A stretch of 64,000 nucleotides of DNA from Gemmatimonadales bacterium (lineage in GTDB: Bacteria; Gemmatimonadota; Gemmatimonadetes; Gemmatimonadales; GWC2-71-9): NCBI GenBank assembly GCA_035299765.1, contig DATGVZ010000083.1:2381-66380 (forward strand). Reading direction: 5' to 3'. Below are positions 18,694 to 38,810 of the stretch, one piece after another. The notes under the pieces were generated by a model. The model was not told the DNA's origin and made no database searches. It was given only the letters and a program-made list of their open reading frames with translations. The position numbers and the translations under genes are program-made. Position 1 is the first letter of the stretch. Each line of letters opens with the position of its first letter.

Positions 18694-18724
18694 GCCAGCG
18701 CATGACATGCTGGCGGTCTTTTTT
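18694..18724 (+). terminator. candidate intrinsic terminator (GCCAGC-loop-GCTGGC followed by TCTTTTTT)
   Basis: A 6-7 bp GC stem (18694-18699 / 18709-18714) is followed by a T6 run (18719-24), which is conspicuous in this GC-rich DNA. It lies between the two beta-helix genes. The stem is short. Confidence 0.35.
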
Positions 18725-23777: not shown

Positions 23778-25660
23778 GCGACCTGTGCGGAAACGATGAG
23801 ATCGAACCGCGCCGGCAGCTCAGCAGGTCCGGTGATCACGACGCACGGCCGCGCATAACACACTCCATAGCGGTCGCTCGCGAGCGACTCGCCCAATGTC
23901 AGCTCGAGCCCGGGAGGCGCCGTAATCACGACGCGCACGACCGGCTCGCCCGGCAGCACGAGCTCGGCCCGGGTCGCGGAGATCGTAATGCAGCGCACCT
24001 CAAGCGCCGCAAGATGCAGGCGCCACGTCAGCGGCTCTACACCCGCTCCGATGATCTCGTCGGTGACGTGCCAGCGCCGCTCCGGCCACCGGGCGATGAT
24101 GCGCCGGCGACAAATCGCTCCTGAAGGACGATGCATATATCCATGGTGCTGACCCTCGAACAGTGCGCCGTCGGGACCGACTTCCCAGCGCAAGCAGCGC
24201 GATCGCGTGCGATCAGCCAGCACCCGCCAGGGCCGCTCGGGGACGATCAGGTTCTGTTCCTCATTGGCCACCTGGACCACGCTGTGGGCGGCGGTGCCGC
24301 GAAAGGCAAAGCGCTGGGCGAGATCGCGCGTGTAGGCGTACGTGCCGCTGTCACTCACCACGCGCCGTCCTCCGACAACGAGCTCGAACGAGAGATGATC
24401 GTTGTGATCGTGGCTGCCCGCGCCGGCGAGGCCCACGGCGCCACAGCGCGTGATCAGGTGATCGGCACCGTGGCGCAACACGTAAAACCCGCCTTGAGGA
24501 AACGACGCGGACTCCGTCGCGGCAGGGATCTCGACCGGCAGGCCCAATCGATGCCGCCGGGGGAACAGCATGCCTTGCGCGGAGACGGCGTGCAGCCGGC
24601 TGTCATCGGCGTCCCCGAGTATCGGCGCCTCGCCGGATTCCGGGAGATAAGCGGCGATGAAGTCGTACATCCGCTGCAGGCGCCGGTCGTACTCAGCGGG
24701 AAGCGCGCCGGGAAGGTTGCGGCGCACCACCTCACCGCCATAAGCAAACAGCTCCGCGACGAGACGGTGATAGCCGACCGACGCTTCGAACGACGTTCCA
24801 TCCGCATGCACCTGGCGCTGCATTTCCGATCCCAGGATCTGCGCGCCGGCCCGCAGCCAGCGTTGTCCCTCCGGAGTGTCACGGAACAGCGCGCCGAGAT
24901 ATGCGAGGCCGACGCCGTCGGCCACGTAGTGATTGCCGCGATAGACGGGATGCCACTCGGGGTAGCGCTCGAGGAACAGCCCCGTCGTGAAGAGGTTTGC
25001 CAGCATGCCCTGCCAGAATGCCGGCGCCACTCCATCGGCCTCGGCGAAGACCAGCAACGCGAGGACCCAATTGGCGGCGCGGATCGCGGCCTCCATCGGG
25101 TTGGTCCAGTTCGGTCCCCGGCCGACGGGATTCGCGGCGGGCCAGGATCCAACATGACGCGCGAAGGTGTCGCGGTAGCGTGGGTCGCCCGAGCGCCAGA
25201 ATGTGCGGGCGAGCGGCAGGAAATAGGCGCCGCGCGACATCTCCCAGACCGTGCGGATATCGGAGCCATCGCCGCGATGCAGCGCGATTCGGAATGCGTG
25301 CTGCAGCGGCCACTCCCACCCGGTATAGAGGTCGCGCCGCCACGACGGCGTTTCCCCGATGTGTACCGGGCCGGAACCCAGGAGGTCGAGCACGCCCCGC
25401 GCCGCGCCATCGGCAATGCGTTTGTCAGCCGGCGTCCATGTGGCGCGGGCCCACTCGCTGCCGGATGCCGCCGGAATCCAGAACGCACCGGCGCCGTCCC
25501 GGGCCAGCCACTGCGGCATCCCTCGCTCTCCCACGCTGCTTCGCCACCGCTCCGCCCAACGCCGCCCACGCGCCTCGAGACGCGCGAAGCCTCCCAGCGC
25601 GTCGACCATCTGGCGGGAGCGTTGGCGCACCTTCCAGCCGACCAGCCGCAGCAGCCTCAT
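23774..25660 (-). CDS. heparinase II/III family protein (alginate-lyase-like N domain plus Hepar_II_III C domain)
   Basis: It carries GSHDHNDHLSFELVVGGRRVVSDSGTYAYT, the characteristic C-terminal heparinase II/III motif. A toroid-like N-terminal region has NWVLALLV and GNHY. Confidence 0.75.
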   Translation of the reverse strand: MRLLRLVGWKVRQRSRQMVDALGGFARLEARGRRWAERWRSSVGERGMPQWLARDGAGAFWIPAASGSEWARATWTPADKRIADGAARGVLDLLGSGPVHIGETPSWRRDLYTGWEWPLQHAFRIALHRGDGSDIRTVWEMSRGAYFLPLARTFWRSGDPRYRDTFARHVGSWPAANPVGRGPNWTNPMEAAIRAANWVLALLVFAEADGVAPAFWQGMLANLFTTGLFLERYPEWHPVYRGNHYVADGVGLAYLGALFRDTPEGQRWLRAGAQILGSEMQRQVHADGTSFEASVGYHRLVAELFAYGGEVVRRNLPGALPAEYDRRLQRMYDFIAAYLPESGEAPILGDADDSRLHAVSAQGMLFPRRHRLGLPVEIPAATESASFPQGGFYVLRHGADHLITRCGAVGLAGAGSHDHNDHLSFELVVGGRRVVSDSGTYAYTRDLAQRFAFRGTAAHSVVQVANEEQNLIVPERPWRVLADRTRSRCLRWEVGPDGALFEGQHHGYMHRPSGAICRRRIIARWPERRWHVTDEIIGAGVEPLTWRLHLAALEVRCITISATRAELVLPGEPVVRVVITAPPGLELTLGESLASDRYGVCYARPCVVITGPAELPARFDLIVSAQVA

Positions 25661-27624
25661 GCGACCCCTACATCCCAGCGCTCAGCCCAGGCGCACAGAT
25701 TGACGAGATTCCAAAGGCGAAAGCCATGATCGGCACGCATCTCGGCATGTTCGCGGAACAGAGCGCCCACTGCATCCGAATCAAACAGCCGTCCGCGCAT
25801 GAGGCGCGATCGCAGCACGGTGTCTTTGGCCCAGGTCGCCAGCGGCTCGCGCCGCAGCCAATCGGCCAGTGGTACGTCGAATCCCTTCTTCGGGCGTTCG
25901 GTCACGTCGGCCCCCAGCAGCGGCTCGGCGGCCAGCTTGACAATGTGTTTGGTGCGATCACCCCGGGGCCCGAGCTTCACATGATCCGGCAGTGCCATGC
26001 CGAGTTCCACGATGCGATGGTCCAGAAAGGGAACACGCGCCTCAACCGAGCTCAGCATCGTCATCTTGTCGACGCGCATCAGCAGCAGCTCCGGCAGGCG
26101 AACCATGAGGTCTTGGTAGGCGATTGCGCTGGCGACGTATCTCTCGCCGTGTCGCCCATTCCGCGGAAGCTCGGCCGCGAATTCCGCCAGATTGCGCATG
26201 GCGAGCGACGCGCTCGAAGGAGCGAGGCGCAAACGCGCCCGCGCCTCTCGGGTCAGCAACGCCTCCTTCTCACTCTCCCAGTGTGCTACCGCACCACTCA
26301 AGAAGAGCGGCTCGCCGCGCGCGGCGCGGCGCAGCAGATCGCGGGGCTCGCGCCAGCGGGGCACTCGCGCGAGCAGCGGACTCGCCGCAGCGCTGATCGC
26401 ACGGCGCAGCGGCACCGGGACGCGCATGTACGGTGTCCACCAGCGGCGCTGGACAGACGCGTATCGCCGGTAACGCGGATATCCGGCGAATAGCTCGTCA
26501 CTCCCCTCCCCAACCTGGACGACGATGACCCCCGACTGCCGGACCGATCGAGCGAGCAGCTGCATCGGCACGCACGTCCAATCCGCCACCGGTTCGTCCT
26601 GACCGTAAATGAGCTCGGGCACCGCGCTCATCACTTCCGCCGGCTGGAGGACGAGCTCCCGATGGTCGGCGCCGAAGCGAGCCGCCACCTGAGCCGCGTA
26701 ACGGCGTTCGTCGAAATGCGGCGCGTTCTCGAACCCGATCGAGAACGTATGCACGGGCGCGGCCAAATGCGTGCTCAGCAGCGCGAGAATGAAGCTCGAA
26801 TCGACGCCGCCGCTCAGCAGTACCCCATGTGGAACATCCGCCATCGTTTGCTCGATCACGGCCGACCGGAGCGTGTCCCGCAGGTGTGCGGCCAGCCCTT
26901 GCTCATCGTCCGCTGAGAGACCGACTGGAAGTCCATGACCCGCCGCCGTCCACCAGCGCACGACTTCCGGCGCGCCGTTCTGTTCGAGCACCAGCATGTG
27001 CCCCGCGGCGAGCTTGCGGATCCCTCGAAACAGCGTTGTCGGCGGCGGCACCGCGGCGAACGTGAGATAATGCCACAAAGCCTGCTCGTCGATTTCCGGT
27101 GTGACCGCGGGATGCGCGAGCAGCGCCTTGATCTCCGATGCCCACAGGAGTTGGCCGCCCGCGAAGGTGTAGTAGAGCGGCTTGACGCCGAGCCGATCGC
27201 GCGCGAGCAGCAGCCGGCGTCGCGGTGCGTCCCACAAAGAGAAGGCGAACATCCCGCGCAACTCCGCCAGCATGTCCGGTCCCCGCTCTTCGTAGAGATG
27301 GATCAGAATCTCGGTGTCCGTGCGGGACCGGAACTGATGGCCTGCGCCCTCGAGTGGTTGGCGCAGCGCGGCGTGATTGTAGACCTCGCCGTTGTACGAG
27401 ATCCATATCGTCCCGTCTTCGTTCGCCATTGGGCCATGGCCGGCGGGACTCAAGTCCACGATCGACAAGCGGCGATGTCCCATCCCGAGTCTGCGGTCTG
27501 GATCGACGTAGCTGCCTGCGTCGTCCGGCCCGCGATGCGACATGGTATCGCGCATGCGCTCGATGACGGCAGGATCGACGTCCGGCCCGCCCCGCAATGA
27601 CAAGGCGCCACAGATGCCGCACAT
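25657..27624 (-). CDS. asnB: asparagine synthase (glutamine-hydrolysing) family amidotransferase
   Basis: The N-terminus MCGICG supplies the Cys2 nucleophile, and LLSGGVDSS is the PP-loop. In EPS loci this type (WbpS-like) is usually assigned to amidation of uronic acid residues. Confidence 0.9.
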   Translation of the reverse strand: MCGICGALSLRGGPDVDPAVIERMRDTMSHRGPDDAGSYVDPDRRLGMGHRRLSIVDLSPAGHGPMANEDGTIWISYNGEVYNHAALRQPLEGAGHQFRSRTDTEILIHLYEERGPDMLAELRGMFAFSLWDAPRRRLLLARDRLGVKPLYYTFAGGQLLWASEIKALLAHPAVTPEIDEQALWHYLTFAAVPPPTTLFRGIRKLAAGHMLVLEQNGAPEVVRWWTAAGHGLPVGLSADDEQGLAAHLRDTLRSAVIEQTMADVPHGVLLSGGVDSSFILALLSTHLAAPVHTFSIGFENAPHFDERRYAAQVAARFGADHRELVLQPAEVMSAVPELIYGQDEPVADWTCVPMQLLARSVRQSGVIVVQVGEGSDELFAGYPRYRRYASVQRRWWTPYMRVPVPLRRAISAAASPLLARVPRWREPRDLLRRAARGEPLFLSGAVAHWESEKEALLTREARARLRLAPSSASLAMRNLAEFAAELPRNGRHGERYVASAIAYQDLMVRLPELLLMRVDKMTMLSSVEARVPFLDHRIVELGMALPDHVKLGPRGDRTKHIVKLAAEPLLGADVTERPKKGFDVPLADWLRREPLATWAKDTVLRSRLMRGRLFDSDAVGALFREHAEMRADHGFRLWNLVNLCAWAERWDVGVA

Positions 27625-28805
27625 CAGCGCACGTCCGCCCTTCCCTCGTACAACCGCACATAAGCATCCACCATGGCTCGCTGGCTGTAGTGCGCTACCA
27701 CGCGCTCCCGACCAGCCAGGCCCATCGCACGACGGCGCGGGGCGTCGGCCAGCGCGCGCAGCGCGGCCGACAGCGCGGCGTCGTCTCCGATGGGAAACAG
27801 CACGCCGGTTCGGCCGTCGGCGATAACCTGCGGGACATCGCCCACCGGCGTTGCCACCACCGGTACCCCACAGGCTGACGCCTCGAGCGCAACCAGCGGC
27901 AATCCCTCACTGCGCGAGCTGAGGACGAATACGTCGAGTGCGGGCAAGACATCCGCGAGATCGATGCGCCATCCCGCAAAGCGCACTCGGCTCCCGATGC
28001 CGAGGCTGGCGACAAGCGCTTCCAGCGCTGCCTGCTGCGGTCCCTCTCCGATCAGGACCAGTTGGACGTGGGGGTGGGTTTGGAACAACGCGGCGACGCC
28101 GCGCACCAGCGTGCCGTAATCCTTCTCTGGAAAGAATCGGCCCGCCGTTCCGATGACGTAAGCATCGGGTGCCAACCCCAGTGCGCGCCGCGCCGCGTTG
28201 GCAGGCTCCGGCGTCCGGGGCTGATAGTGCGTGGTATCGATGCCGTTGGGGATCACGCACAGGCGCCGCGCCGGTACGTGCACACAATCCGCGTAGTAAG
28301 CGAGCTGCGAGTGAGCCACCACGACGAAGGCGTCGCTCGTGGCGCTCATCCCGCGGAGCAAGCGGCGATAGTCCGGCCGTGGCTCCAGATACTGGTAGGA
28401 GTGCTCGGTATGCACGCGCCGGGGCACGCGAGCAAGCCACGCCGCCGGCAGACTGTGGACCAGCGTCCCGAAATGGTGCGTATGCACGACGGCGGGTCGT
28501 AGACGACGCAGCAGGCGCGCGAATGTCCAATGAAACCGGGGCTGCCAGAACCGGCGGCCGCCGAGGACGTGATATTCGACGCTCGCGTCGCGCAGCAGCG
28601 CTTCGTGTTCTCCGCCTTCGTCCAGCGCGACGACGACGGCGCGGAAACGCTGCGGATCGAGTCCTGTGGCGAGAGTGACCGCCATCCGCTCCATCCCGCC
28701 GTGGCCGAGGTTCAACAGCACCTGCACGACCGTCGCTCGCGCGCGCGCCTGTGAAGCACGCAATCGCTCGCGTGGAGCGGTAGCGGGCAGCGGCAGCACG
28801 GTCAT
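27624..28805 (-). CDS. glycosyltransferase family 4
   Basis: Start ATG 28805 (MTVLPLPAT), a 4-nt overlap with the upstream gene. Motifs LNLGHGGMERM and SSRSEGLPLVALEASACGVPVVATPVGDVPQVIADGRTG. Its stop shares 1 nt with the asnB start (TGATG). Confidence 0.8.
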   Translation of the reverse strand: MTVLPLPATAPRERLRASQARARATVVQVLLNLGHGGMERMAVTLATGLDPQRFRAVVVALDEGGEHEALLRDASVEYHVLGGRRFWQPRFHWTFARLLRRLRPAVVHTHHFGTLVHSLPAAWLARVPRRVHTEHSYQYLEPRPDYRRLLRGMSATSDAFVVVAHSQLAYYADCVHVPARRLCVIPNGIDTTHYQPRTPEPANAARRALGLAPDAYVIGTAGRFFPEKDYGTLVRGVAALFQTHPHVQLVLIGEGPQQAALEALVASLGIGSRVRFAGWRIDLADVLPALDVFVLSSRSEGLPLVALEASACGVPVVATPVGDVPQVIADGRTGVLFPIGDDAALSAALRALADAPRRRAMGLAGRERVVAHYSQRAMVDAYVRLYEGRADVR

Positions 28806-30118
28806 GCTGCCACTGCCTGGGGCCACTGACGCAGCGGCGTCCCAAGACGCAGCGCGACACACACGGCCACCACAAAAAACGTGATGGGTTCGTATGCAAT
28901 CGAGAGGAAGAAGCCGCCGACGAGCAGCGCAACCATGCCTCCGAGGGCGGCCTCCGCGAGGCTGGCTTCTTGCCTGGCAACCTCGACCCCTCGCGCGGCA
29001 AGCTGACGGGCGACTTTGCGAAGTCGGCGGCTGGCCGCGGCCGCTACCCAGAGCAGCCGCACGAATGCAACCAGTCCGAACACGCCGAGCTCGGCACCGA
29101 CCTGGATGAAGACGTTATGGGCCGCCGAATACTTCACTCCATATCCCACATTCTCCTTACCACTGAGCACGCCCTCGGCAACCCCAAAGTTCTGCGCGCC
29201 CACACCCAGGAACGGCCGCCGTGCCATGTAGGACAGGCCTCGTTTCCACACGTTCACGCGGCCTTCGCGGAATGTGTAATTGTAGTCTTCTGTCGGATGG
29301 AGGATCGTGGAGAAACGCTCGCGAATCGCGGGCCCCGCCGTCAGCATCACGACCGCGGCTCCACTCGCGATCGCCAGCCCGACGATCACACGGCGACGTC
29401 CCGGTACCTGAACCAGCAACCAGCACGCCAGCAGCACAAGGCCAAGAAATCCGGCTCGCGATCCCGTCTTGACGATACCGCCCACCATCAAGAGTGTCCC
29501 CGCGATCCCGACGATTTTCCAGATCCCGCGATCGCTGACGAGCTGCAGCGCAAAGGGAATCACAACCAGCAGGTGGACTGCCGATTCGTTGGGATCGAGT
29601 GCCTGCCCGACGTACGCTCTGCCGCCGAGCACTTTGGCTGCACCCGCAAGGAGGGTGACCGCGACTACGCTTTCGAACACCACCAACGTTCGCAGCGAGG
29701 TTCGCAGGGTCCGACGATCACACCACCCCGTCATGGCAATCACGAAGAAGAGCAGGGTCTTCCAGAATTCCTGCGTGAGGAAGGCAACGCTGTTGCCGGG
29801 CCACACTGCCCCCGGGACGGACAGGATTGCCAGCAGAAGAATCACTCCGACACACGCGACCGCCGGAGTCCGCAGCACCGTCACCAGTGCGCGTCCCCGG
29901 ATGACCGTCAGCGCGCTCACCAGCAAGAGCACTCCGATGACTTTCGCCGGCTGCAGCCGATCCATGAGGGGCACGATCTCGTGAATCTTGGTGAGCGCGA
30001 GGACGGTGTAGGTGGCCAGTAGCCCGCGAAACACCTCGATCGCGCCTCGCTCCCGCGGCGGGGAGCGCTCCGCGGGCCGGGCGGGAACGAAGAACTCACC
30101 CGCTGGCAGGGACGTCAT
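28802..30118 (-). CDS. O-antigen ligase/polymerase family membrane protein (Wzy_C-type)
   Basis: Start ATG 30118 (MTSLPAGEFF). It has about 10 or more hydrophobic helices and a GSRAGFLGLVLLACW loop motif typical of the O-antigen ligase-like family. Confidence 0.7.
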   Translation of the reverse strand: MTSLPAGEFFVPARPAERSPPRERGAIEVFRGLLATYTVLALTKIHEIVPLMDRLQPAKVIGVLLLVSALTVIRGRALVTVLRTPAVACVGVILLLAILSVPGAVWPGNSVAFLTQEFWKTLLFFVIAMTGWCDRRTLRTSLRTLVVFESVVAVTLLAGAAKVLGGRAYVGQALDPNESAVHLLVVIPFALQLVSDRGIWKIVGIAGTLLMVGGIVKTGSRAGFLGLVLLACWLLVQVPGRRRVIVGLAIASGAAVVMLTAGPAIRERFSTILHPTEDYNYTFREGRVNVWKRGLSYMARRPFLGVGAQNFGVAEGVLSGKENVGYGVKYSAAHNVFIQVGAELGVFGLVAFVRLLWVAAAASRRLRKVARQLAARGVEVARQEASLAEAALGGMVALLVGGFFLSIAYEPITFFVVAVCVALRLGTPLRQWPQAVAA

Positions 30119-31293
30119 GTAGGGGCTCCCGGTCCTCTCGCATCGATCCACACGTCCCAACGACCGCGCATGGCATTCGCCGCCGCCATTATCAGCGCGG
30201 CGCACAGCACGACAGCACTGCGCGCGGTCCCCATGAAACCGATTCCTGGTCCCTGAGGGGACGGGCGCGGGGACGGGTGGTGACGTGGCGTGCGGCGGTT
30301 GCGGCTGACCTTCCAGCCGAGCGTCACGACAACAAGTCCGAGAGCGCCCGCGAGCGCGTCCCAGGGGCCGACGATGAGGAGCCCTCCCGCGATCACGCAA
30401 CCGACAGCGAGCGGCGTCATCAGCCGCAGCACCTTGTGGGACATGAATTGCCACCAGATCCGGTTCCGGCTCGGAAGGAGCAACGAGGGCATCCACGAGA
30501 TCAGCTGATAGTTACCGGTCAGTGTCCGCACTTTCCGCGCGAGCTCAATCGCATCGGACGGGGACCGAGTGTCGGTCGCGACAGCGCTGAGGGCGAAGCC
30601 CACTCGCTTACCGGCGCGGACCACCTGAAACGGCACCCACACGTCATCCAGCAGCAGTCCGCGCGGCAGCGGACGCCAGAATTCGCGCTTCAACGCGTAT
30701 AACGCGCCGCTGACGCCGACCGCACTGTCCAACGCCGCTTCGCGACAGCGCAGCCGGCGCTCCAGTCGCCAGTACCGCTCGTACAGGCTCTCACCGCCTG
30801 CCGGCGTCTCAATCTCCAGCGCCCCTGAGACCGCGCCCATGTCTGGAGACGCGAGGACGTCGACGAGCGCCTCCACCGCACCGGGTGCGATCTGCTGCCG
30901 CACGTCCGTAAATACGAGCACGTCACCGCGCGACAGCTCCACGGCACGATTGAGCGCGACCGCCTTGCCTTGTCGCTGCGGCAGTACCTCAACCCTCACG
31001 CGGCGGTCGGAGATTTCTGCCAGCCCGCTAGTTGCTGCCGCGTCCGGCCCGTCCACCACGACGATGATCTCCGCTGGCAGAGTGATCGTTTGGAGCAGGT
31101 TCCGGACCTTCCCGGCGAGATTTCCGCCCCCGGCGGCAATGATGACAGAAATGAGCTGCGGTCTGGAACGACCCGACGGTGAGGGAGGACGCTCTGGCAG
31201 TCGGCTCACGATCCATGGGTAGCCGACGTAGGTATAGAGCAAATGCACAGCCCCGAGCCCGAAAAGCGTGATGCCCCAGGAGCTCCCTGTCAT
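30115..31293 (-). CDS. membrane-anchored glycosyltransferase family 2
   Basis: Start ATG 31293 (MTGSSWGITLFGLGAVHLLY). GT-A core ISVIIAAGGG...IIVVVDGPD...GKAVALNRAVELSRGDVLVFTDV, followed by C-terminal TM helices. Confidence 0.75.
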   Translation of the reverse strand: MTGSSWGITLFGLGAVHLLYTYVGYPWIVSRLPERPPSPSGRSRPQLISVIIAAGGGNLAGKVRNLLQTITLPAEIIVVVDGPDAAATSGLAEISDRRVRVEVLPQRQGKAVALNRAVELSRGDVLVFTDVRQQIAPGAVEALVDVLASPDMGAVSGALEIETPAGGESLYERYWRLERRLRCREAALDSAVGVSGALYALKREFWRPLPRGLLLDDVWVPFQVVRAGKRVGFALSAVATDTRSPSDAIELARKVRTLTGNYQLISWMPSLLLPSRNRIWWQFMSHKVLRLMTPLAVGCVIAGGLLIVGPWDALAGALGLVVVTLGWKVSRNRRTPRHHPSPRPSPQGPGIGFMGTARSAVVLCAALIMAAANAMRGRWDVWIDARGPGAPT

Positions 31294-32396
31294 GAGTGTG
31301 GCCTCACTGCAACACTCGTGACCCGTCGATACACTTGGCGCCATCCCTGCTTGGCTTGTGACCAGCGATAGCGGGCACACTCGCGCCGGGCCTCGGCCGC
31401 GAGCCGGCCCGCAAGTCCCGGCTCGCGCAGCACACGCAGCACCGCGGCTGCCAGGGCAGCAGGCCGGTCCACGGGGACGAGGAGTCCGGTCCGCCCGTCC
31501 TCGACGATGCGCGGAATCCCTCCTGCCGCGGTCGTGACAACCGGGACGCCGGCAGCAAACGCCTCGATAATGACATGGGGCATGTTGTCGACGCGGGAGC
31601 TGTTTACGAGAATGCCGCCCTGCGCGAGCACGGCGGGCATCGCGCGGTGCGGCACTTCACCATGGAACTGCACGTCCGAGAGACCGAGATCCCCGACGGC
31701 GCGGCGCAGTGCGCGCGCAGCGGTTCCGCCGCCATAGATGTCCAGCACGGCGTCAGGGGCCTCGGACTTGAGGAGGGCAAAGGCACGCAGCGTATTGTCG
31801 ATGCCGTACAAAGGTTCGAGCAGACGGGCGGACACGAGGCGCGGGCGGACACGCTCCGGGCGGCGGTAGCTGAAGGCGCTCGTATCGACCACGTTGGTCA
31901 CGACAACGCCGTCGATGCCGTGGCGGCGAAAAACCTCCTGCAGATATGTGGACGGAAACACGAGGACTGCCGCGCGCCGTGCCGCCCAGCGCAGCAGCGG
32001 CCCCCACCAGCGGAAGTGTGCCTCGGCGCGGCCGTCGTGATAGTTCAGGACGACTGGTCGCCGCCGTAGCCTCGCAATCACCACGGCGGGCAGCGCCCCG
32101 AAGAGGAACGCCGTGTGAGCGGCCGCGAACACGTGTATCACATCGGCTCGTGCCGCGGCGCGGATCAGTCCACCGCAATACAGCAAGGGCCGAATCACGG
32201 AGCGAATGAACTTCCATTCTGTCAGGCCGCGCAGCACACCCGATAGCCGTGGATCGATCGGCTGCAGCTCGATCGAGATCTCGGGATCCTTGGTGAACCC
32301 GCGCACGATATCGCCGGCGGCGCGCGCGTGACCGCCTACCGCTCTCCCGGGAGCGGCAATCACAACGTGCAGGCGACGCTGCGACGAGGCAGCCAT
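31290..32396 (-). CDS. glycosyltransferase family 4
   Basis: Motifs LHVVIAAPGRAVGGHA and NSSRVDNMPHVIIEAFAAGVPVVTTAAGGIPRIVEDGRTG (EX7E). Confidence 0.8.
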   Translation of the reverse strand: MAASSQRRLHVVIAAPGRAVGGHARAAGDIVRGFTKDPEISIELQPIDPRLSGVLRGLTEWKFIRSVIRPLLYCGGLIRAAARADVIHVFAAAHTAFLFGALPAVVIARLRRRPVVLNYHDGRAEAHFRWWGPLLRWAARRAAVLVFPSTYLQEVFRRHGIDGVVVTNVVDTSAFSYRRPERVRPRLVSARLLEPLYGIDNTLRAFALLKSEAPDAVLDIYGGGTAARALRRAVGDLGLSDVQFHGEVPHRAMPAVLAQGGILVNSSRVDNMPHVIIEAFAAGVPVVTTAAGGIPRIVEDGRTGLLVPVDRPAALAAAVLRVLREPGLAGRLAAEARRECARYRWSQAKQGWRQVYRRVTSVAVRPHS

Positions 32397-32416
32397 ATCC
32401 AGCCACGCAACCGGGT

Positions 32417-33415
32417 TTATGAAACGGCCGCCGTCATGCCGACTGCACGTACTGACGTTCTCCGCGTCGCCACCAACGACAACCAGGTACGTCGCAGCCC
32501 ATCCTCCATCGACACGCGAGGCTTAAACCCGAGTACGCCCTCGGCTCGCTCGAGGTTCGCCAGGGAATCGCGCACATCGCCCGCTCGCGCTGCGAATGAG
32601 GCGAATTGCAGCGCATGACCCGTCACACTCCCGATCATGCTGATCAGCTCCACCAGCGATGTACGTTTTCCCGCGCCGATATTGACGACGCGGCCATTGG
32701 CGCGCTCCGAGGGCGCCGTGGCGGCGAGCACGTTTGCGTCGACCACGTTGTCGACGTAAATGAAATCGCGGGTCTGCCGCCCGTCGCCATACAGCGCGGC
32801 CGGCCGCTGCTCGACCACGGCCTGTAGGAAATTCGGGATCACCGCAGCATACGCCGATTTTGGAGACTGACGCGGCCCGAATACGTTGAAGTAGCGCAGC
32901 GCGACGCCTTCCAACATGCCGGCGCGCGCGAACGCGAGAACGTATTGCTCCCCTGCCAGTTTGGACGCGGCGTAGGGCGAGCGCGGCAACGGCTCAGTCG
33001 CTTCGGCCCGTGCCTGATCATCCGCATCACCATAGACCGCGCTCGAGCTCGAATACACGACCCGGGGCACGCGCGCCGCTGCGCACGCCTCCAATAAGCG
33101 CATCGTGGCGTTCACATTGGCGTGGTGAGTCGCCCAGGGATTACGCAGCGAGTGCGGCACGCTGGCCAGCGCCGCGAGATGGAAAACCAGCTCGATTCCC
33201 GTCACCGCGCGGCGACAGACCTCCGGGTCGCACAGATCCCCCTCCAGGAAGTCGATCGCGTCGGCGACCGGCGTGAGGTTCGCGCGATCGCCGCTACTGA
33301 GGTTGTCGACGACGCGCACCGCGCAGCCCAGTCCGACGAGCCGTTCGGCGAGATGGGAGCCGATGAATCCGGCGCCCCCGGTAACCAGACAGGTCTTTCT
33401 TCTCATTGCTGGCAT
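32417..33415 (-). CDS. NAD-dependent nucleotide-sugar 4-epimerase (WbpP/GalE-like SDR)
   Basis: Motifs CLVTGGAGFIGSHLAERL and catalytic YAASK. The start is ATG 33415 or 33406. It is the first gene of the long - strand EPS operon. Confidence 0.85.
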   Translation of the reverse strand: MPAMRRKTCLVTGGAGFIGSHLAERLVGLGCAVRVVDNLSSGDRANLTPVADAIDFLEGDLCDPEVCRRAVTGIELVFHLAALASVPHSLRNPWATHHANVNATMRLLEACAAARVPRVVYSSSSAVYGDADDQARAEATEPLPRSPYAASKLAGEQYVLAFARAGMLEGVALRYFNVFGPRQSPKSAYAAVIPNFLQAVVEQRPAALYGDGRQTRDFIYVDNVVDANVLAATAPSERANGRVVNIGAGKRTSLVELISMIGSVTGHALQFASFAARAGDVRDSLANLERAEGVLGFKPRVSMEDGLRRTWLSLVATRRTSVRAVGMTAAVS

Positions 33416-33729
33416 CGCGCTCCCGCTTGCGCGCCTGTCTTGCAAGCCCGACGCCACCACGACCGCGCGAGGCGCACGCTGCTGCCGGCCTTTAAGCCAC
33501 GCCGAAGCAATGAGATATGTCGCCATCTGCTGTTCAGTCCCCGCGACTGAGACAGCCACGGGCTGTGGCAGCGACGAGACAGTTTACCGCGCGGTCCCTC
33601 GTGCGCTGTCGCTCCAACTTCTTGTCAATAGGTCGGTTAGAGCCGCTGCGCATGGCACCGCTCTTGCGACCCCCCATCCACCATTCACAGGGCCTCGGCA
33701 CGGAGGCTTCCAAGCGGAGGTGTAAGCGG

Positions 33730-34044
33730 ATGCGGCTTCCAATGCCCAGTCCGGATGTGATTTACAAGGCTGTAGACAACGGCGCGGTGCTGCTGTCCGT
33801 GAGCGACGAGGTCTATTACGGACTCAACGGCGTCGGCAGCTACATCTGGGAACATCTCCCGCCTGTCCTCGAAAATTTCGAGGCGCTCTGCGCGTCGGTC
33901 GGCGAGAAGTATCCCGACGCTTCCGCCGAGACGATTCGCGCAGACGTCCGCACGCTGCTCGAGGATCTCATGAGGCATGGGCTGGTGCGCACGCCAGCCG
34001 GCAGCGATGAAGTCGGTCAGCTTGAACCCGCGCGATTGGGTTGA
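33730..34044 (+). CDS. lasso peptide biosynthesis B1 protein (PqqD-family RiPP recognition element)
   Basis: Frame of ORF 33517..34044. ATG 33730 has GGAGG at 33716-33720; ATG 33742 is an alternative start. The PqqD-like pattern is VIYKAVDNGAVLLSVSDEVYYGLNGVGSYIWEHL...L...YPD......DV..LLEDL...GLV. Confidence 0.8.
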   Translation: MRLPMPSPDVIYKAVDNGAVLLSVSDEVYYGLNGVGSYIWEHLPPVLENFEALCASVGEKYPDASAETIRADVRTLLEDLMRHGLVRTPAGSDEVGQLEPARLG

Positions 34045-34438
34045 TCTCCTCGCTGCCCAGGCTGCTCTGGCTCGGGCTCAACTCCTGGTGTGGATCCGGC
34101 GCCCAGGGGCGCTCCTGACGCCGATGGTCGAGGCCCCGGCGGCGCCTGCGGACCCCGGCGCCGCTCTCCAGGCTGAGTGCGTTGCGCACGCCGTCTCGCG
34201 GGCGGCGCGGCATGGGTTGTTCCGGCCGAGCTGTCTCGTACGCGCGGTCGCGTTGCACCAGATGCTGCAGGCCCGCGGGTTGACCGGCAGCTCGCTGCGC
34301 GTCGGAGTCCGCCGCGAGGGCGCCGCATTTCTGGCTCATGCGTGGGTGGACTACCGCGGCATGGTGCTGGGCGAGGAGGAATGGCATGTGAAGCAGTTCG
34401 AGGAGTTGGCACGCATGGGCGTGCCGCGGACACAATGA
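34007..34438 (+). CDS. lasso peptide biosynthesis B2 protein (transglutaminase-core Cys protease)
   Basis: It carries RPSCLVRAVALHQMLQARGL...LRVGV......FLAHAWVDYRG, the Cys/His signature of the lasso leader peptidase. The start is ATG 34007 (MKSVSLNPRDW) or 33977. Either overlaps the B1 3-prime end. Confidence 0.8.
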   Translation: MKSVSLNPRDWVDLLAAQAALARAQLLVWIRRPGALLTPMVEAPAAPADPGAALQAECVAHAVSRAARHGLFRPSCLVRAVALHQMLQARGLTGSSLRVGVRREGAAFLAHAWVDYRGMVLGEEEWHVKQFEELARMGVPRTQ

Positions 34439-36447
34439 GCGGGATCTTCGGAGTCTTCACGCGCGATCGGGAGCCGATCGAGGACGTTGTGTCCGCGTCT
34501 TTGATCGCAGGCTTGGCGTCTCGCGGAAACGAGATCTCCTCGGTATGGCAGCTCAACGGAGCCGCGCTCGGCGTAACGCGTCGAGCGTGGGAGCGGGACA
34601 GTCCATTCAGCGGCGACGCTGGCGTTGTTTCGTGCGGCGACCTGACGATCGCGGCCGACGCCTCGCTGTATTATCGCCGTGAGCTGTGTGCCAAACTCGC
34701 AGCCGCCGGCGTGCACCCTGAAAGTGACACACCGAGCCACTTCATCGTCGCGGCCTATCGCGCGTGGGGGCGCGAATGTCTGCGACAGCTCGAAGGGGAC
34801 TACGCGTTCATTCTTTGGGACGCGCGGCGGCGCGAGATCTTTTGCGCGCGGGACTTCGCCGGCACCCGGCCACTCTTCTACCTGAAGACGGGCCGCCGTG
34901 TGGTCCTCGCCTCCACGCTTGCGGCGCTCCGCGCCGTGCCTGATTGCCCGCCGCAGTACAACGCCGCATACCTCGGCGAAACCGCTGCGAATCTGTGGCT
35001 CGCGGCAGACGAAACAGCGTACACCGCCCTCACAGCGCTGCCCGCTGGGTTCGCGCTGTCGACCACCCCTGGCGGTGCTGTCGTCACCTATCGTGCCTGG
35101 AGTCCGCCGGCCATCGACACGGCTGGTTCACCGTCATTCGAAGATGCCGCCTTGGAGCTCCGGGAGAAGCTCGCTCGCGCCGTCGGAGAACGCCTGAGTG
35201 GTGCGCGAGTCACAACGGTATGGATGAGCGGCGGCCGAGATTCCACCGCGATTTTTGGTGTGGGGCAGCGCGAGCTACGGGGCCAGGACCACCCGACGCG
35301 ACTCCTGCCGGTATCGATGAGCTATCCAATTGGCCATCGTGGTCGCGAGGACGAATTCATCACCGCTGTAGCAGGGTTCTGGGATGTCCCGGTGCAGTGG
35401 CTGAGCAGCGCGGACGTGCCATTCCTTGCGGATCCTGAACAGCAGGCGCGGCCGCGCGACGAGCCCTACGCCCCTCCCCACGAGATGATGAGTCGCGCAC
35501 TCGCGCGCGGCAGCGGCGGCGTGGGTGCCCGCATCGCGCTCGATGGGTGGGGCGGCGATCAGCTGTTTGAGCTGTCTCCCATTTACCTCGCCGATCTGTT
35601 CCGCCGCGGCCGTTGGTTGCAGCTGCGCCGCGAATGGAGCCGGCTGCAAATTCGGAACCGACGCTTTTTCCTGCAGTCGGCGATCGTGCCGACAATTCCG
35701 CCGGCGATTCGCGCGTTAGCTGGACTGCGCGGCGACCTCGAGCGCCGCATCCCTGATTGGATCGTGCCCCGTTGCGCGAAGCAGCTACGTGCGCGACAGC
35801 CGTCCCACCTGCCCCTGCGCGGAGGTGCGTCGTTTGCGGATCACGAGCTCTACATCGCTCTGACCGCCGACACCGCGGCGCGCGTCCGCGGCTGGCTGTC
35901 GGCGATCGCGCTCGATGAGGGGGTGGAGGTCCGCTCGCCGCTGTACGACTCCCGAATCATCGAGCTGGCGGTACGGAGACCGGCAGAGGAGCGCCGTTCC
36001 GGACGCGATACGAAGTTGTTGTTACGCGCCGCACTGCGCGGCCTCTTGCCCGAAGCGGTTCTCGCCCCACGCAAAGATCGCACGGGACTGGCTGGGGATC
36101 ATTTCCGCGCTGCGATGCAGTCGACGTTCCCGACGCTACTGCGGGAACTGCGCGATGCATCGGTGCTCGCGGACTTGGGCATCATCGACCCCGGTGCGCT
36201 ACGTCGCGCCGCCGATGATTGCCTCCTCCATTCCTGGAATGACGAGATCGCCGCCGCCCTGTTCTTCACGGTGCAAACGGAGCTGTGGCTCCGCGGTGTC
36301 GATCGCAAGGCGACTCACGATGATGGCCAACGGTTGGCCGTCCTTTCGCCAGGCGAGCGGCCTGGCAACGCCCCGCAGCCGGGAGGTAACAGGTGTACGA
36401 AACCCCGAAACTCGAGCGCTTCGGAACTTTTCGGGATCTCACGATGA
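34435..36447 (+). CDS. lasso peptide cyclase (asparagine synthetase-like lactam synthetase, C protein)
   Basis: Frame of ORF 34177..36447. ATG 34435 is in an ATGA overlap with the B2 stop. It starts MSGIFGVF, so it has no Cys2, as is typical for lasso cyclases. The PP-loop is VWMSGGRDSTAIF. A non-conserved-looking C-terminal tail overlaps the precursor leader. Confidence 0.85.
   Translation: MSGIFGVFTRDREPIEDVVSASLIAGLASRGNEISSVWQLNGAALGVTRRAWERDSPFSGDAGVVSCGDLTIAADASLYYRRELCAKLAAAGVHPESDTPSHFIVAAYRAWGRECLRQLEGDYAFILWDARRREIFCARDFAGTRPLFYLKTGRRVVLASTLAALRAVPDCPPQYNAAYLGETAANLWLAADETAYTALTALPAGFALSTTPGGAVVTYRAWSPPAIDTAGSPSFEDAALELREKLARAVGERLSGARVTTVWMSGGRDSTAIFGVGQRELRGQDHPTRLLPVSMSYPIGHRGREDEFITAVAGFWDVPVQWLSSADVPFLADPEQQARPRDEPYAPPHEMMSRALARGSGGVGARIALDGWGGDQLFELSPIYLADLFRRGRWLQLRREWSRLQIRNRRFFLQSAIVPTIPPAIRALAGLRGDLERRIPDWIVPRCAKQLRARQPSHLPLRGGASFADHELYIALTADTAARVRGWLSAIALDEGVEVRSPLYDSRIIELAVRRPAEERRSGRDTKLLLRAALRGLLPEAVLAPRKDRTGLAGDHFRAAMQSTFPTLLRELRDASVLADLGIIDPGALRRAADDCLLHSWNDEIAAALFFTVQTELWLRGVDRKATHDDGQRLAVLSPGERPGNAPQPGGNRCTKPRNSSASELFGISR
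36381..36386 (+). promoter_or_regulatory. Shine-Dalgarno (GGGAGG) for the lasso precursor gene
   Basis: GGGAGG lies 6 nt upstream of GTG 36393. The in-frame TAA at 36387-36389 excludes any more upstream start. Confidence 0.6.
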
Positions 36448-36509
36448 CCGTATTGGGACCCGGGACCCAGGACTTGCTCATGGGCGGGAATATTCTCTCG
36501 AGTTCGTAG
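36393..36509 (+). CDS. lasso peptide precursor (A peptide), 38 aa: MYETPKLERFGTFRDLTM-TVLGPGTQDLLMGGNILSSS
   Basis: Hand translation. It has a GTG start with a strong SD. The leader has Tyr-17, Pro-14, Leu-12 and Thr-2 when cleaved after Met18. The core has a single acidic residue, at position 9. It sits immediately after the B1/B2/C genes and before the kinase. It is absent from the ORF track because it is shorter than 60 aa. Confidence 0.75.
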   Translation: MYETPKLERFGTFRDLTMTVLGPGTQDLLMGGNILSSS

Positions 36510-36573
36510 CTCGAAGGGTGCTGGGGGGGCGGGGCTGCGTTCCAGACCCTACCCCCTCGGTAGCTCTCTGCCG

Positions 36574-37605
36574 ATGCCCACGTATTCGATTTTTGGCGAT
36601 TGCCTGCGCTCGGAGATCACACTTCCGGAGTTGCGTCGCTCGCGTAAACACGCGCGCTGGACGCTGCGGATAGGCGTGATCCCCCCTCCGGCACTGTCCG
36701 ATGGCGCCGAGCTCTTGGGAAGCGAGACGGTGATGGATGGAGTGGACGTGCGGCTCTATCGCCTCGCCAACGGCTACCGCTTGCAGTACGACGACACGGG
36801 CTCGTTCGACATCTCTGCGGAGGGCCGCGAGATCGTCTGGTCGGGAAACGGGAATGGAAACGCTGCCAAGCTCCTCGACGCCGTCCGACTCGACGTCATT
36901 AATCGGGTATTGCCCGTGGCGCTGCACGCGGCCGGGACCCTCTGTCTCCATGGCAGCGCGGTGAGTCTAAACGGAAAGGCGATCGCTTTTCTTGCTCCCC
37001 GTTGCCACGGCAAATCCACGCTGGCACTCGCGCTCTCGCAAATCGGGGGGCGCATCCTGACGGATGATGCGCTGCCGGTGGAGCCCAGCGTGCCTGGCCG
37101 CGGCAGATCCGTGTCGGCGCGCCCTGGTGTGCACAGCGTGCGGCTCTTCGACGACACCGCGCGCGTCGTTCTCGGCGACCCACGGAATTGGAAACGAGTC
37201 GGCGCATACCCGCTGCCCCGGCGCGATGGCCACCTGCTTCCCGATGATCAGCCCGCGATCACGAAGCAGATTTTGCGCGGGATTCCGTTGCACAAGTTGA
37301 TGCTTCGGACAGTGCCGCTCGCGGCGATTTACGTGTTGCGACCGGTCCGCGGCGACGGAGACCGCCCCGTCCTCAGCCGCACGGCACTCGCGCCCGTACG
37401 CGCGGCATTGTCTCTCGTCGAGCACGCCAAGTCCGGCGCGCTGCTGGGGCGCTCCGAGGCGCCACGCTTACTGGACCGCGCCGTCACGATCGCACGCCAG
37501 GTCCCGGTCTACGTGCTCGAGATCGTTCGCGACCTGTCCCGCATCGATGAGGCCGCCCGGGAGCTCGCGGGGTGGCACGTCCGCACCAACGGCCGCTACG
37601 TATGA
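36574..37605 (+). CDS. HPr kinase-like P-loop kinase (lasso precursor Ser kinase type)
   Basis: It carries LCLHGSAVSLNGKAIAFLAPRCHGKSTLALAL...GGRILTDDALPVEP, the pattern of HprK-related kinases encoded in paeninodin-type lasso clusters. Confidence 0.75.
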   Translation: MPTYSIFGDCLRSEITLPELRRSRKHARWTLRIGVIPPPALSDGAELLGSETVMDGVDVRLYRLANGYRLQYDDTGSFDISAEGREIVWSGNGNGNAAKLLDAVRLDVINRVLPVALHAAGTLCLHGSAVSLNGKAIAFLAPRCHGKSTLALALSQIGGRILTDDALPVEPSVPGRGRSVSARPGVHSVRLFDDTARVVLGDPRNWKRVGAYPLPRRDGHLLPDDQPAITKQILRGIPLHKLMLRTVPLAAIYVLRPVRGDGDRPVLSRTALAPVRAALSLVEHAKSGALLGRSEAPRLLDRAVTIARQVPVYVLEIVRDLSRIDEAARELAGWHVRTNGRYV

Positions 37606-38810
37606 TCGCCTCTCAATCGCTCTCAGCGGAGGCGCAGCTGCTGCTCATGGCCGCCGACGGCCGGAGCGATGCCACGCACGCATCGATATCTCTCGACGAT
37701 CATTTCGATTGGGCGAAGCTCTTGCGTCTCGCCCAGGAGGAGGGTTCCACCGCGCTCGTGTGGCGTTGGGTGCGGCACACCCACGCTCAGCATGTGCCCG
37801 CTGACGTCGCAATTCAATGGCAGCGACTTGCGATGGTCGCCGAATTCCAGATGTTGCATTTGGAGCGTTTGCTGGACGACGTGCTCGACGTGTTCGAGGC
37901 GTACGGGATCGAGTCCGTTCTGCTGAAGGGCAGCGCGCTCGCATACACGGTGTATGGCTCCTTCGCGGCCCGCCCGATGGGCGATCTCGACTTGCTGGTG
38001 CGACCAGTCCAAGCGCAGGAAGCGTGGTCGCTGCTGCAAGCGAACGGCTGGGTCTGGCCATCGGACCGCTGGCCACGCGCGCATTACGTTGCCCATCAGC
38101 ATTTGCCTCCGCTCGTCCATTCATCGGGCAGCGAGCTCCGCGCGGAGATTCATTCCGCGCTGTTCCCCATTGGTCACCCCTTCCGCTGGCCGGTCGAGGA
38201 CGTGTGGAATCAGGCGACGCGGCTGCGCGTGCAGAATCGTTCCGTGCTCGTGCCGCAACCGTTCCATCAGTTGTTGCACCTCTGCATCCACTTTGCCTGG
38301 TCGCACGAGATGCGCTGGGGCAGCTGGCGCGCGCTGCGGGATGTCGCCGCCATCACGAGGCGCGAGAACATCGGCTGGACGGCGTTTGTCGAGACCGCGC
38401 GTACCTGCCGGGCGACGACATGCTGTTACTGGACCCTGCGCCTGGCTCGCGACCTCAGCGGCGCGCTCGTGCCGGATGACGTGCTGCATGCCTTGCGGCC
38501 GCCGAGACCGGAGTCGCTGTTACGGCGCCTCGAGTGTCATTACACGCTTCAGCTCTTTGCCCTCGACAACGTCTGCCCGTCGGAAGGGTTGAACAATGCG
38601 TTATGGCAGCTGGGCATTGCGCCGCGGTGGTGCGGACACGGCGGTGCCCGGCCGTGGCAAGGCGCCGAGCACTGGACGGCGAACGGCGACCAGCGAAGCG
38701 CGCGCGCGGCCTGGCCGCGGCGGATTATGAACCGGGTGCGTCACGCGGCGGCGATTCTCGTGTATCTGGGGAGGGTAACGGCGACGACGGGGCACCCGCT
38801 TCGCGCTTGA
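37602..38810 (+). CDS. nucleotidyltransferase family protein (NTP_transf_5 / PF14907-like)
   Basis: ATG 37602 in an ATGA overlap with the kinase stop. The motif VLLKGSALAYTVYGSFAARPMGDLDLLVRP is characteristic of this family. Its 3-prime end overlaps convergent rarA by 86 nt. Confidence 0.7.
   Translation: MIASQSLSAEAQLLLMAADGRSDATHASISLDDHFDWAKLLRLAQEEGSTALVWRWVRHTHAQHVPADVAIQWQRLAMVAEFQMLHLERLLDDVLDVFEAYGIESVLLKGSALAYTVYGSFAARPMGDLDLLVRPVQAQEAWSLLQANGWVWPSDRWPRAHYVAHQHLPPLVHSSGSELRAEIHSALFPIGHPFRWPVEDVWNQATRLRVQNRSVLVPQPFHQLLHLCIHFAWSHEMRWGSWRALRDVAAITRRENIGWTAFVETARTCRATTCCYWTLRLARDLSGALVPDDVLHALRPPRPESLLRRLECHYTLQLFALDNVCPSEGLNNALWQLGIAPRWCGHGGARPWQGAEHWTANGDQRSARAAWPRRIMNRVRHAAAILVYLGRVTATTGHPLRA

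Follow-up and report, generated by a model that had tools for sequence, protein, structure and literature searches.

A 38-codon open reading frame (ORF) in a soil Gemmatimonadota genome is confirmed here as a real gene that has never been annotated, and its sequence places it, as a predicted precursor, among the lasso peptides tailored by a kinase and a nucleotidyltransferase, of which it is a new and unannotated member. The ORF occupies positions 36393-36509 of the forward strand of the window (the whole 64,000-nucleotide stretch of DNA that was analysed), starts with GTG, ends with TAG at 36507-36509, and translates as (M)YETPKLERFGTFRDLTM-TVLGPGTQDLLMGGNILSSS. A Shine-Dalgarno sequence read from the DNA, GGGAGG (36381-36386, forward strand), lies 7 nt 5′ of the GTG.

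The precursor gene and its cluster

The precursor gene is absent from public annotations of the locus, owing to its overlap with the cyclase ORF and the lack of a Gly at core position 1, and a protein-database search with the (padded) precursor peptide returned no match because the ORF has never been called as a gene. Both blanks would also be expected of a chance, unexpressed frame over the 3′ end of the cyclase gene, but such a frame is a very improbable explanation here. The precursor passes the curated cutoff of the leader model NF033521 (lasso_leader_L3; NCBIfam profile search, 26 bits against 19), and carries a Shine-Dalgarno sequence whose GGAGG recurs ahead of every orthologous precursor. 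An orthologous ORF with this leader, its motif at the same position, is present in 162 of 183 fetched loci; the loci include 12 copies of the window's own contig (L001-L012) and were gathered through homologues of the cyclase, the precursor itself having no annotated protein. A single match to the strict motif plus tail is present in the window, versus 0.135 per shuffled window. Moreover, purifying selection acts on the ORF (pN/pS of 0.17 in the leader, 0.32 in the ring and 0.51 in the tail), and the part of the cyclase that it overlaps is a non-conserved tail: the two genes share 55 nt in different frames, the last ~50 cyclase codons are not conserved, and most alignments with cyclase homologues cover no more than query residues 1 to ~620.

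Upstream, on the same strand and immediately preceding the precursor, are three genes which, with the precursor and two genes downstream, make the locus a complete split-B lasso cluster of the order B1-B2-C-A-K-N by sequence and homology. B1 (33730-34044, forward; 104 aa according to gene calls on identical public contigs) is a PqqD-like RiPP recognition element (Pfam PF05402 PqqD, E=2.3e-14), which the NCBIfam lasso_PqqD models match below their own cutoffs. B2 (34007-34438, forward; 143 aa) is a transglutaminase-like leader peptidase (Pfam PF13471 Transglut_core3, E=7.7e-16; NCBIfam NF033537 lasso_biosyn_B2, 53.9 bits versus a cutoff of 33); an alternative 104-aa call from 34124 would truncate its domain. 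The cyclase C (34435-36447, forward; 670 aa) is asparagine-synthetase-like, with Pfam Asn_synthase (PF00733) and GATase_7 domains, and matches NCBIfam NF033535 at E=2.4e-69, yet below the curated cutoff. Downstream of the precursor lie K (36574-37605, forward; 343 aa), a P-loop kinase of the HPr-kinase/PEP-carboxykinase type as assigned from a weak TIGR04352 match, its fold and conserved residues, and N (37602-38810, forward; 402 aa), an uncharacterised nucleotidyltransferase with a GS...DLD motif (Pfam PF14907 NTP_transf_5, E=3.2e-42). On its upstream side the cluster borders a divergent gene for a sugar epimerase, on its downstream side a convergent one for an MgsA-type AAA ATPase, and inspection of the flanking genes found no exporter (ABC, D) or isopeptidase gene in the cluster. 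A promoter search found none, terminator-like sites occur at background level, and a GC-rich hairpin 3′ of the stop codon is no better than shuffles (z = -1.2).

Leader, predicted ring and the identity of residue 1

The leader (36393-36446, forward), identified by translation, the NF033521 match and its low pN/pS, fits the published lasso motif YxxPxLxxxGxxxxxTx (PMC6856326) without a gap through Tyr2, Pro5, Leu7, Gly11 and Thr17, the last being penultimate to Met18. From this match, cleavage after Met18 and a Thr1-Asp9 ring are predicted. The original prediction held that motif spacing fixes the cut at this point; the spacing does agree with the published leader rule (PMC10368454), in which YxxPxL spans -17 to -12 and Thr occupies -2, but the site is predicted, not fixed, by it. 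The predicted core (36447-36506, forward), followed directly by the stop codon, contains a single Asp or Glu in its 20 residues, Asp27 (codon GAC, 36471-36473, forward), so that the earlier view of this residue as the only possible isopeptide acceptor is borne out. Asp27 is at core position 9, one of the positions (7, 8 or 9) at which the lasso criterion places Asp or Glu, and the ring from Thr1 to Asp9 would leave the tail LLMGGNILSSS. We regard this ring as a good prediction rather than a demonstrated fact, with a probability somewhat above even.

Comparison with relatives suggests that this register is shared. In the subclade formed by the window and seven orthologues of its precursor (cyclase identity 55-78% for those listed; cores including TVVGPGTQDALLGGNILPTS, TVVGPGTNDVVLGGNIVATS and SVVGPGTNDVVLGGNILPGS), Asp9 is kept in all eight cores, position 1 is Thr in five, Ser in two and Ala in one, and the residue at -1 is Met, Gln or Leu, within the -1 spectrum of the family. 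Across 133 unique cores of related loci, almost all from Gemmatimonadota, residue 1 is Gly in 10.5% and non-Gly in 89.5%, with Val, Ile or Thr first in 53%; three further lineages within the family likewise have a predicted Thr1 (TGLFGGND, TGNSGPSD and TATTTAVD). Thus a non-Gly residue 1 is, on the predicted cores, the norm in the precursor's own uncharacterised family. Family cores that combine Gly1 with a non-Gly second residue (GNLGGFGD, GSLVGLGD, GKSDPGFD) still have Asp at position 8, so counting from Thr-x gives a self-consistent register.

Thr at position 1 falls outside the historical rule of Gly, Ala, Ser or Cys, which the original prediction had followed and which is now outdated and no longer class-defining. 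Leu1 was shown by NMR in leepeptin (PMC6856326), Trp1 and Tyr1 are known from fusilassin, cellulassin and halolassin, and bioinformatic surveys report high variability at position 1 (PMC6856326 among the sources). The novelty of Thr1 is thus smaller than originally held, given these Leu1, Trp1 and Tyr1 precedents. Nonetheless, as the original prediction stated for Thr1, no characterised lasso peptide with Thr1, Val1 or Ile1 was found in the searchable literature, where whole-word matches were to non-lasso subjects only.

The nearest precedents for the leader and residue 1 differ from our precursor in other respects. Leepeptin (Streptomyces leeuwenhoekii) shares a YxxPx[L/V]xxxGxxxxxTx leader, a cluster with no exporter, and a non-Gly residue 1 placed directly after Thr-x, which there is aliphatic and NMR-proven (Leu1-Glu8) (PMC6856326), but it closes an 8-residue ring on Glu, carries classical plugs in an aromatic-rich tail, has neither a kinase nor a nucleotidyltransferase, and comes from an actinobacterium. 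The Thermobifida peptides fusilassin, cellulassin and halolassin similarly begin with a bulky non-Gly residue (Trp1-Glu9, Trp1-Glu9 and Tyr1-Glu8, with rings of 9, 9 and 8 residues), and the fusilassin cyclase has been shown to tolerate position-1 substitutions as well as a ring larger or smaller by one residue; their residue 1 is however aromatic rather than beta-branched and hydroxylated, the acceptor is Glu, and tailoring genes are absent.

Tailoring genes and the predicted pathway

The assignment of K as a kinase draws on several signals. Its match to NCBIfam TIGR04352 (HprK_rel_A) has E=1.7e-6 over the P-loop and lies far below the cutoff, and 37 homologues show no variation at His126, Gly146-Lys147-Ser148 or Asp164-Asp165, the His-Lys-Asp-Asp residues being reported to be essential in lasso kinases (PMC9266682). 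A PDB sequence search with K gave no match. The AlphaFold2 model (pLDDT 92) retrieves PEP carboxykinases as its top Foldseek matches (about E=1e-7), and HPr kinase itself is not among the top 50. As PEP carboxykinase and HPr kinase belong to one P-loop superfamily, this fold result is consistent with a kinase, although no proof of HprK membership. Among the 107 related loci with enough flank, K is present in 101 and N in 91.

By analogy to characterised systems, K is predicted to phosphorylate a Ser of the precursor, with the C-terminal one favoured, and N is a candidate PsmN-like enzyme acting on phosphoserine; PsmN is itself described only as an ‘uncharacterised NTP transferase’ (PMC6993621). 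The core ends in SSS, and a C-terminal Ser occurs in six of the eight subclade cores and in 77 of 124 family cores, while the last residue of the other two subclade cores is Gly or Tyr. Such a Ser is not always the target of a lasso kinase, as BsfK modifies Ser3 (PMC10368454).

The closest parallel is pseudomycoidin, encoded by psmCAKB1B2ND in Bacillus pseudomycoides, whose C-terminal Ser is phosphorylated and then carries hexose (PMC6993621). The two systems are alike in their split B1/B2, cyclase, HPr-kinase-like and uncharacterised nucleotidyltransferase genes (K and N being likened to PsmK and PsmN by description, not by sequence), in a non-Gly residue 1 (Ala in pseudomycoidin), an Asp acceptor and a C-terminal Ser, and in a tail with few bulky residues, for which a C-terminal modification has been proposed as the lock in pseudomycoidin (PMC6993621). 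They differ in that pseudomycoidin comes from the Bacillota, has another gene order, an ABC exporter and Ala1 rather than Thr1. Paeninodin (Paenibacillus dendritiformis) also has a 9-residue ring on Asp9 and a non-Gly residue 1, again Ala, and the C-terminal Ser of its precursor is phosphorylated by an HPr-kinase homologue with the His-Lys-Asp-Asp residues (PMC9266682 for the motif). K is likened to this kinase, PadeK, by these residues; paeninodin differs in its acidic, aromatic tail, its ABC transporter and the absence of a nucleotidyltransferase. Its leader is also shorter, with a WxxPxI motif. The original prediction pointed to a GPGT segment resembling the start of the paeninodin core, and the paeninodin core AGPGTSTPDAFQPDPDEDVHYDS fits the published core mass, but the likeness carries little weight: GPGT is at positions 2-5 in paeninodin and at 4-7 here, and we reject this shifted tetrapeptide in low-complexity, Gly/Pro/Thr-rich rings as a sign of kinship. 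A third system, BsfA of Bradymonas sediminis, has the YxxPxL element in common (-17 to -12), and its lasso cluster likewise contains a kinase gene and an N gene (PMC10368454); B1 is required there for phosphorylation and cleavage alike (PMC10368454). BsfA differs in that its ring is Gly1-Asp8, its residue at -2 is Ile, and its kinase acts on core Ser3 rather than on the C-terminus.

We propose a pathway in which B1 would bind the leader at YxxPxL and present Thr17 (-2) to the B2 cysteine protease, which would cleave after Met18. The cyclase would then adenylate the Asp27 side chain, and attack by the alpha-amine of Thr19 would yield a 9-residue Thr1-Asp9 macrolactam around LLMGGNILSSS. The HPr-kinase-like enzyme would phosphorylate a precursor Ser, the likeliest being the C-terminal Ser38 by the example of paeninodin, and the NTP_transf_5 enzyme may add a further group to the phosphate, comparable to the hexose in pseudomycoidin. 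We think it probable, though by no means secure, that the whole B1-B2-C-A-K-N pathway operates in this way and closes a Thr1-Asp9 ring.

Cleavage site and threading

A different cut by the same cluster and chemistry, one or two residues later, would give a Val1-Asp8 ring (8 residues; calculated mass 1839.940 Da) or a Leu1-Asp7 ring (7 residues; 1740.872 Da). The family gives some hint of such a cut: 109 of 124 related cores have Gly2, with position 1 mostly Val, Ile or Leu, and this near-universal [Val/Ile/Leu]-Gly start aligns with the [Val/Leu]-[Gly/Ala] pair at subclade positions 3-4, and most rings of the family close on Asp8 (104 of 124). LTM-TV resembles a duplicated Thr-x, Ala, Ile and Val have each been described at -2 of predicted precursors (PMC10368454), and a ring of 7 or 8 residues would need no more than small plugs, in keeping with a tail that has no bulky residue. 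However, a later cut breaks the YxxPxL(-17 to -12)/Thr(-2) spacing of characterised precursors; Thr17 is invariant in the eight subclade precursors, at the family motif position, whereas residue 19 varies, and residue 18 is one of those that the family has at -1 (Gln, Leu, Lys, Arg and Met). We therefore consider a later cut unlikely, although it is the alternative to which we give most weight. It would place Thr19-Val20 as a second Thr-x pair, or Thr19 at -1, and leave residue 1 non-Gly in either case. A core starting at Gly22 was rejected, as its ring would have 6 residues, outside the known sizes of 7-9.

The Thr1-Asp9 reading must also account for the tail, in which Phe, Trp, Tyr, Arg, His and Lys are all absent; six of the eight subclade tails have no bulky residue. 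A tail of this kind makes a bulky C-terminal modification the likeliest lock for a 9-residue ring, and it points to either a C-terminal phospho-(glycosyl) lock, as proposed for pseudomycoidin, or the smaller ring of a later cut. Alternatively, the macrolactam may not be stably threaded (branched-cyclic), or the precursor may be poorly processed, such that no true lasso exists in isolation. The absence of any bulky residue after a 9-residue ring and of an exporter gene from the cluster would suit this, as would the finding that pseudomycoidin, when purified in unmodified form, behaved like a branched cycle (PMC6993621). Yet the core and all six genes are conserved among orthologues whose cyclases are 55-78% identical, pN/pS is below 1, and about 85-95% of related loci keep K and N, which accords with a functional lock, and we judge an unthreaded or poorly processed product to be distinctly unlikely. 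Both the difficulty of keeping a 9-residue ring threaded with no bulky tail residue and the lack of a beta-branched residue 1 among the characterised lasso peptides found were counted against Thr1-Asp9, as was the absence of exporter and isopeptidase genes from the cluster.

Returning to the preferred Thr1-Asp9 ring, we tentatively propose, at a little under an even chance, that cyclases of this Gemmatimonadota family routinely close on a beta-branched residue 1 (Thr here, Val or Ile in about half of the relatives) and, jointly, that a phospho-glycosyl or nucleotidyl group on the C-terminal Ser, and not bulky side chains, keeps the thread of the 9-ring subclade in place. The family would then depart from two habits of the lasso class, and the mechanical lock would be a post-translational modification. 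If confirmed, the Thr1-Asp9 peptide would have the first beta-branched, hydroxylated residue 1 among the characterised lasso peptides found, and would be the first characterised lasso peptide from Gemmatimonadota. It would also be evidence that leader peptidases and cyclases in nature accept such a residue, a point of interest for scaffold engineering, since position 1 has been among the least permissive sites. Because the precursor was missed by annotation, lasso genome-mining counts for Gemmatimonadota are probably underestimates. A small, cysteine-free peptide with no plugs would also offer a clean test of the C-terminal phospho-sugar lock, an idea that stems from pseudomycoidin. The calculated masses are 1958.998 Da for the linear core and 1940.988 Da for the dehydrated core, with 2020.954, 2183.007 and 2345.060 Da for the phospho and hexosylated phospho forms.

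An overlooked precursor gene and its cluster

The open reading frame at 36393–36509 (+ strand; 38 codons, GTG start, GGGAGG 7 nt 5′ of the start) is a genuine, previously unannotated lasso precursor gene in a cluster of the type whose peptide is tailored by a kinase and a nucleotidyltransferase. Its full product is (M)YETPKLERFGTFRDLTM-TVLGPGTQDLLMGGNILSSS (leader-core), and the core occupies the end of the ORF: the codons at 36447–36506 (+), ACC GTA TTG GGA CCC GGG ACC CAG GAC TTG CTC ATG GGC GGG AAT ATT CTC TCG AGT TCG, followed by TAG, translate to TVLGPGTQDLLMGGNILSSS, with Asp27 the sole acidic residue among the last 20. The original prediction was correct in its coordinates and sequence-level statements. 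The leader matches NCBIfam NF033521 (lasso_leader_L3; 26 bits versus a cutoff of 19), and the leader pattern plus tail occurs once in the window versus 0.135 times per shuffled window. Pairwise codon comparison across the subclade (the window peptide and seven orthologous precursors with Asp9) yields pN/pS values that rise from 0.17 in the leader through 0.32 in the ring to 0.51 in the tail (pS 0.4–0.7), and the precursor peptide is therefore under purifying selection. The first 55 nt of the ORF (36393–36447) lie within the cyclase ORF in a different frame, as they do in all 12 copies of the window contig (L001–L012), and this 3′ end of the cyclase is unconserved, the alignment of most homologues being restricted to residues 1 to ~620. 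It is uncalled in all public gene calls on public contigs and therefore missing from the protein databases; its lack of annotation and its position across the cyclase ORF in another frame account for the empty result of a search among 5.8 billion proteins.

All six cluster genes lie on the + strand. Upstream of the precursor are a PqqD-like RRE (B1, 33730–34044; PF05402, E=2e-14), a transglutaminase-like peptidase (B2, 34007–34438; PF13471; NCBIfam lasso_biosyn_B2, 53.9 bits, cutoff 33) and an Asn-synthetase-like cyclase (C, 34435–36447; PF00733 and GATase domains), which scores best in NCBIfam against a lasso cyclase model (E=2e-69, under its cutoff); downstream are a 343-aa protein with a weak HprK-related match (K, 36574–37605) and a nucleotidyltransferase (N, 37602–38810; PF14907, NTP_transf_5, E=3e-42). 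Exporter and isopeptidase genes are absent from the cluster. Its neighbors, a divergent sugar-epimerase gene on one side and a convergent MgsA-type AAA gene on the other, retain their positions beside orthologous lasso clusters. The GC-rich hairpin at 36519–36562 (+), between the precursor stop and the kinase start, is no better than shuffled sequence (MFE of the region −38.9 kcal/mol; z = −1.2) and lacks a T-run, leaving a role in attenuation unsupported. Immediately upstream of the cluster, a polysaccharide-type gene block (~24997–33559, − strand) holds several glycosyltransferases, a Wzy_C polymerase, a heparinase II/III-like protein, an epimerase and a second Asn-synthetase homologue (25657–27624). 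No tRNA genes were found in the window, and its single Rfam match is a full-length c-di-GMP-I riboswitch aptamer at 18613–18699 (+) (RF01051, 55.5 bits versus a gathering score of 35). Soil metagenomes and the MAGs GCA_009772585.1 and GCA_009772555.1 contain the same contig as the window.

Core start and ring register

A published rule for lasso leaders puts YxxPxL at −17 to −12 and Thr at −2 (PMC10368454); the leepeptin paper gives the motif as YxxPxLxxxGxxxxxTx, and NMR places the first ring residue of leepeptin, a Leu, immediately after Thr-x (PMC6856326). The window peptide matches this motif without a gap, and the predicted cut accordingly falls after Met18. In the subclade, residue 18 is Met, Gln or Leu and so lies within the family −1 spectrum (Gln 65, Leu 33, Lys 8, Arg 8, Met 5), residue 19 (Thr in five subclade members, Ser in two, Ala in one) lies within the +1 spectrum, and Thr17 is invariant across the subclade. 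As the sole acidic residue of the core, Asp27 is the only possible acceptor, as had been proposed. The accompanying claim that motif spacing fixes cleavage after Met18, so that the core starts with Thr, stands in part: spacing and comparative data agree with this cut, but do not fix it. On motif spacing and conservation, a Thr1–Asp9 ring is a well-founded prediction and probably the correct one.

Cleavage later than Met18 would bring the peptide closer to the [Val/Ile/Leu]-Gly start common in the family, given the subclade's [Val/Leu]-[Gly/Ala] pair at positions 3–4, and LTM-TV resembles a repeated Thr-x. The tail, which in six of the eight subclade members is devoid of Phe, Trp, Tyr, Arg, His and Lys, is awkward without a plug for a nine-residue ring, and less so for a ring of seven or eight. 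We nonetheless consider later cleavage unlikely, as the YxxPxL/Thr(−2) spacing, the residue 18 and 19 spectra and the invariant Thr17 all agree with a cut after Met18. A core starting at Gly22 was rejected: with Asp27 the sole acceptor, its ring would have six residues, outside the known 7–9 range, and the first residue is therefore non-Gly in any register. Also in agreement with the motif register, family cores with Gly at +1 and non-Gly at +2 keep their Asp at +8.

First residues across a Gemmatimonadota family

The 183 loci compared comprise 160 from a cyclase alignment, 11 from exact look-ups of the closest cyclases and the 12 contig copies; the cyclase homologues are nearly all from Gemmatimonadota. 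The leader pattern Y..P.[LVIMF]...G.....T. (fixed spacing, then 8–45 residues and a stop) is present in 162 of the 183, nearly always directly 3′ of the cyclase, and these reduce to 134 unique precursors. Those just 3′ of each cyclase in the related loci (L013–L183) share a near-identical leader, YxKPx[L/V]ERFGTFRELTx, and constitute a large, uncharacterised Gemmatimonadota lasso family; MAG surveys of the phylum have merely counted lasso clusters. Besides the window core, the subclade comprises TVVGPGTQDALLGGNILPTS (L173/L174, cyclase identity 78%), TVVGPGTNDVVLGGNIVATS (L175, 58%), TVVGPGTNDVVLGGNILPGSG (L180, 55%), SVVGPGTNDVVLGGNILPGS (L093/L094, 57%), SVVGTGTNDLLFGGNLVPPPTGS (L013, 58%), TIVAPGTTDIALGGPLTPY (L130) and ALLGSGSTDVLLGGVAVAPPPPSS (L182), all preceded by an upstream GGAGG, with GTG, TTG or ATG starts. 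More than one precursor is encoded in some of the related clusters: L141 and L142 contain three in tandem at about 3764–4900 (LGLDRDCD..., LGAREDCD..., LGFSQDCD...), and L016, L020, L052, L073, L155 and L171 have a second one ~2.3 kb away with the same leader and a very different core.

Gly1 is the exception in this family: of 133 unique cores, 36 start with Val, 27 with Ile, 17 with Leu, 14 with Gly (10.5%), 13 with Ala, 8 with Thr and 8 with Ser, with Val/Ile/Thr together at 53.4% and Val/Ile/Leu at 60%. Gly occupies position 2 of 109/124 related cores (88%), mostly after Val, Ile or Leu, and 84% of the same set have Asp at position 8. Most of these cores contain two (68/124) or three (32/124) Cys, which suggests disulfide-bridged lasso classes.

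The original list of known first residues (Gly, Ala, Ser, Cys) was incomplete, as Leu1 (leepeptin; PMC6856326) and Trp1 or Tyr1 (fusilassin, cellulassin, halolassin) are characterised, and surveys of predicted precursors find position 1 highly variable (including PMC6856326). The absence of a characterised Thr1 lasso peptide was borne out: none with Thr1, Ile1 or Val1 is described in the searchable literature, outside which most subscription papers lie. A beta-branched first residue is unusual, yet by predicted cores is common to about half of the uncharacterised family. Paeninodin, whose core we take to be AGPGTSTPDAFQPDPDEDVHYDS (computed mass in agreement with the published [M+2H]2+ of 1209.50), shares GPGT in its ring with the window peptide at an offset of two residues. 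The proposed resemblance is real as to tetrapeptide and shift, but a shifted tetrapeptide in Gly/Pro/Thr-rich rings is no evidence of kinship.

Tailoring genes and retention of the tail

The kinase-like protein K has no Pfam match at the threshold used and no PDB sequence match. Across 37 homologues its His126, Gly146-Lys147-Ser148 and Asp164-Asp165 are invariant, with the same spacing as in HPr kinase, and its AlphaFold2 model (pLDDT 92) has matches to PEP carboxykinases (E about 1e-7), members of a P-loop superfamily that includes HPr kinase. Among the 107 related loci with enough flank, 101 carry the K gene and 91 the NTP_transf_5 gene.

More interesting is how the predicted nine-residue ring would retain a tail without plugs. 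In paeninodin, phosphorylation of the precursor's C-terminal Ser by the kinase precedes maturation; in pseudomycoidin, PsmK and PsmN attach a phosphate followed by one or two hexoses. Pseudomycoidin without these groups acts like a branched cycle, and the authors of that study propose that the bulky group at the C-terminus serves as a lock. By analogy, such a lock would also fit the plug-less tail of the window peptide. Ser is the last residue in six of the eight subclade cores and, across the family, in 77 of 124. BsfK, a counter-example to a C-terminal target, phosphorylates Ser3 (PMC10368454), and we therefore only infer the site in the window peptide. Within the Thr1/Asp9 subclade, two members lack a C-terminal Ser: L180 (core ending ...PGSG), which retains both the kinase and nucleotidyltransferase genes, and L130, whose locus is too short to show them. 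The kinase target may therefore not always be the last residue.
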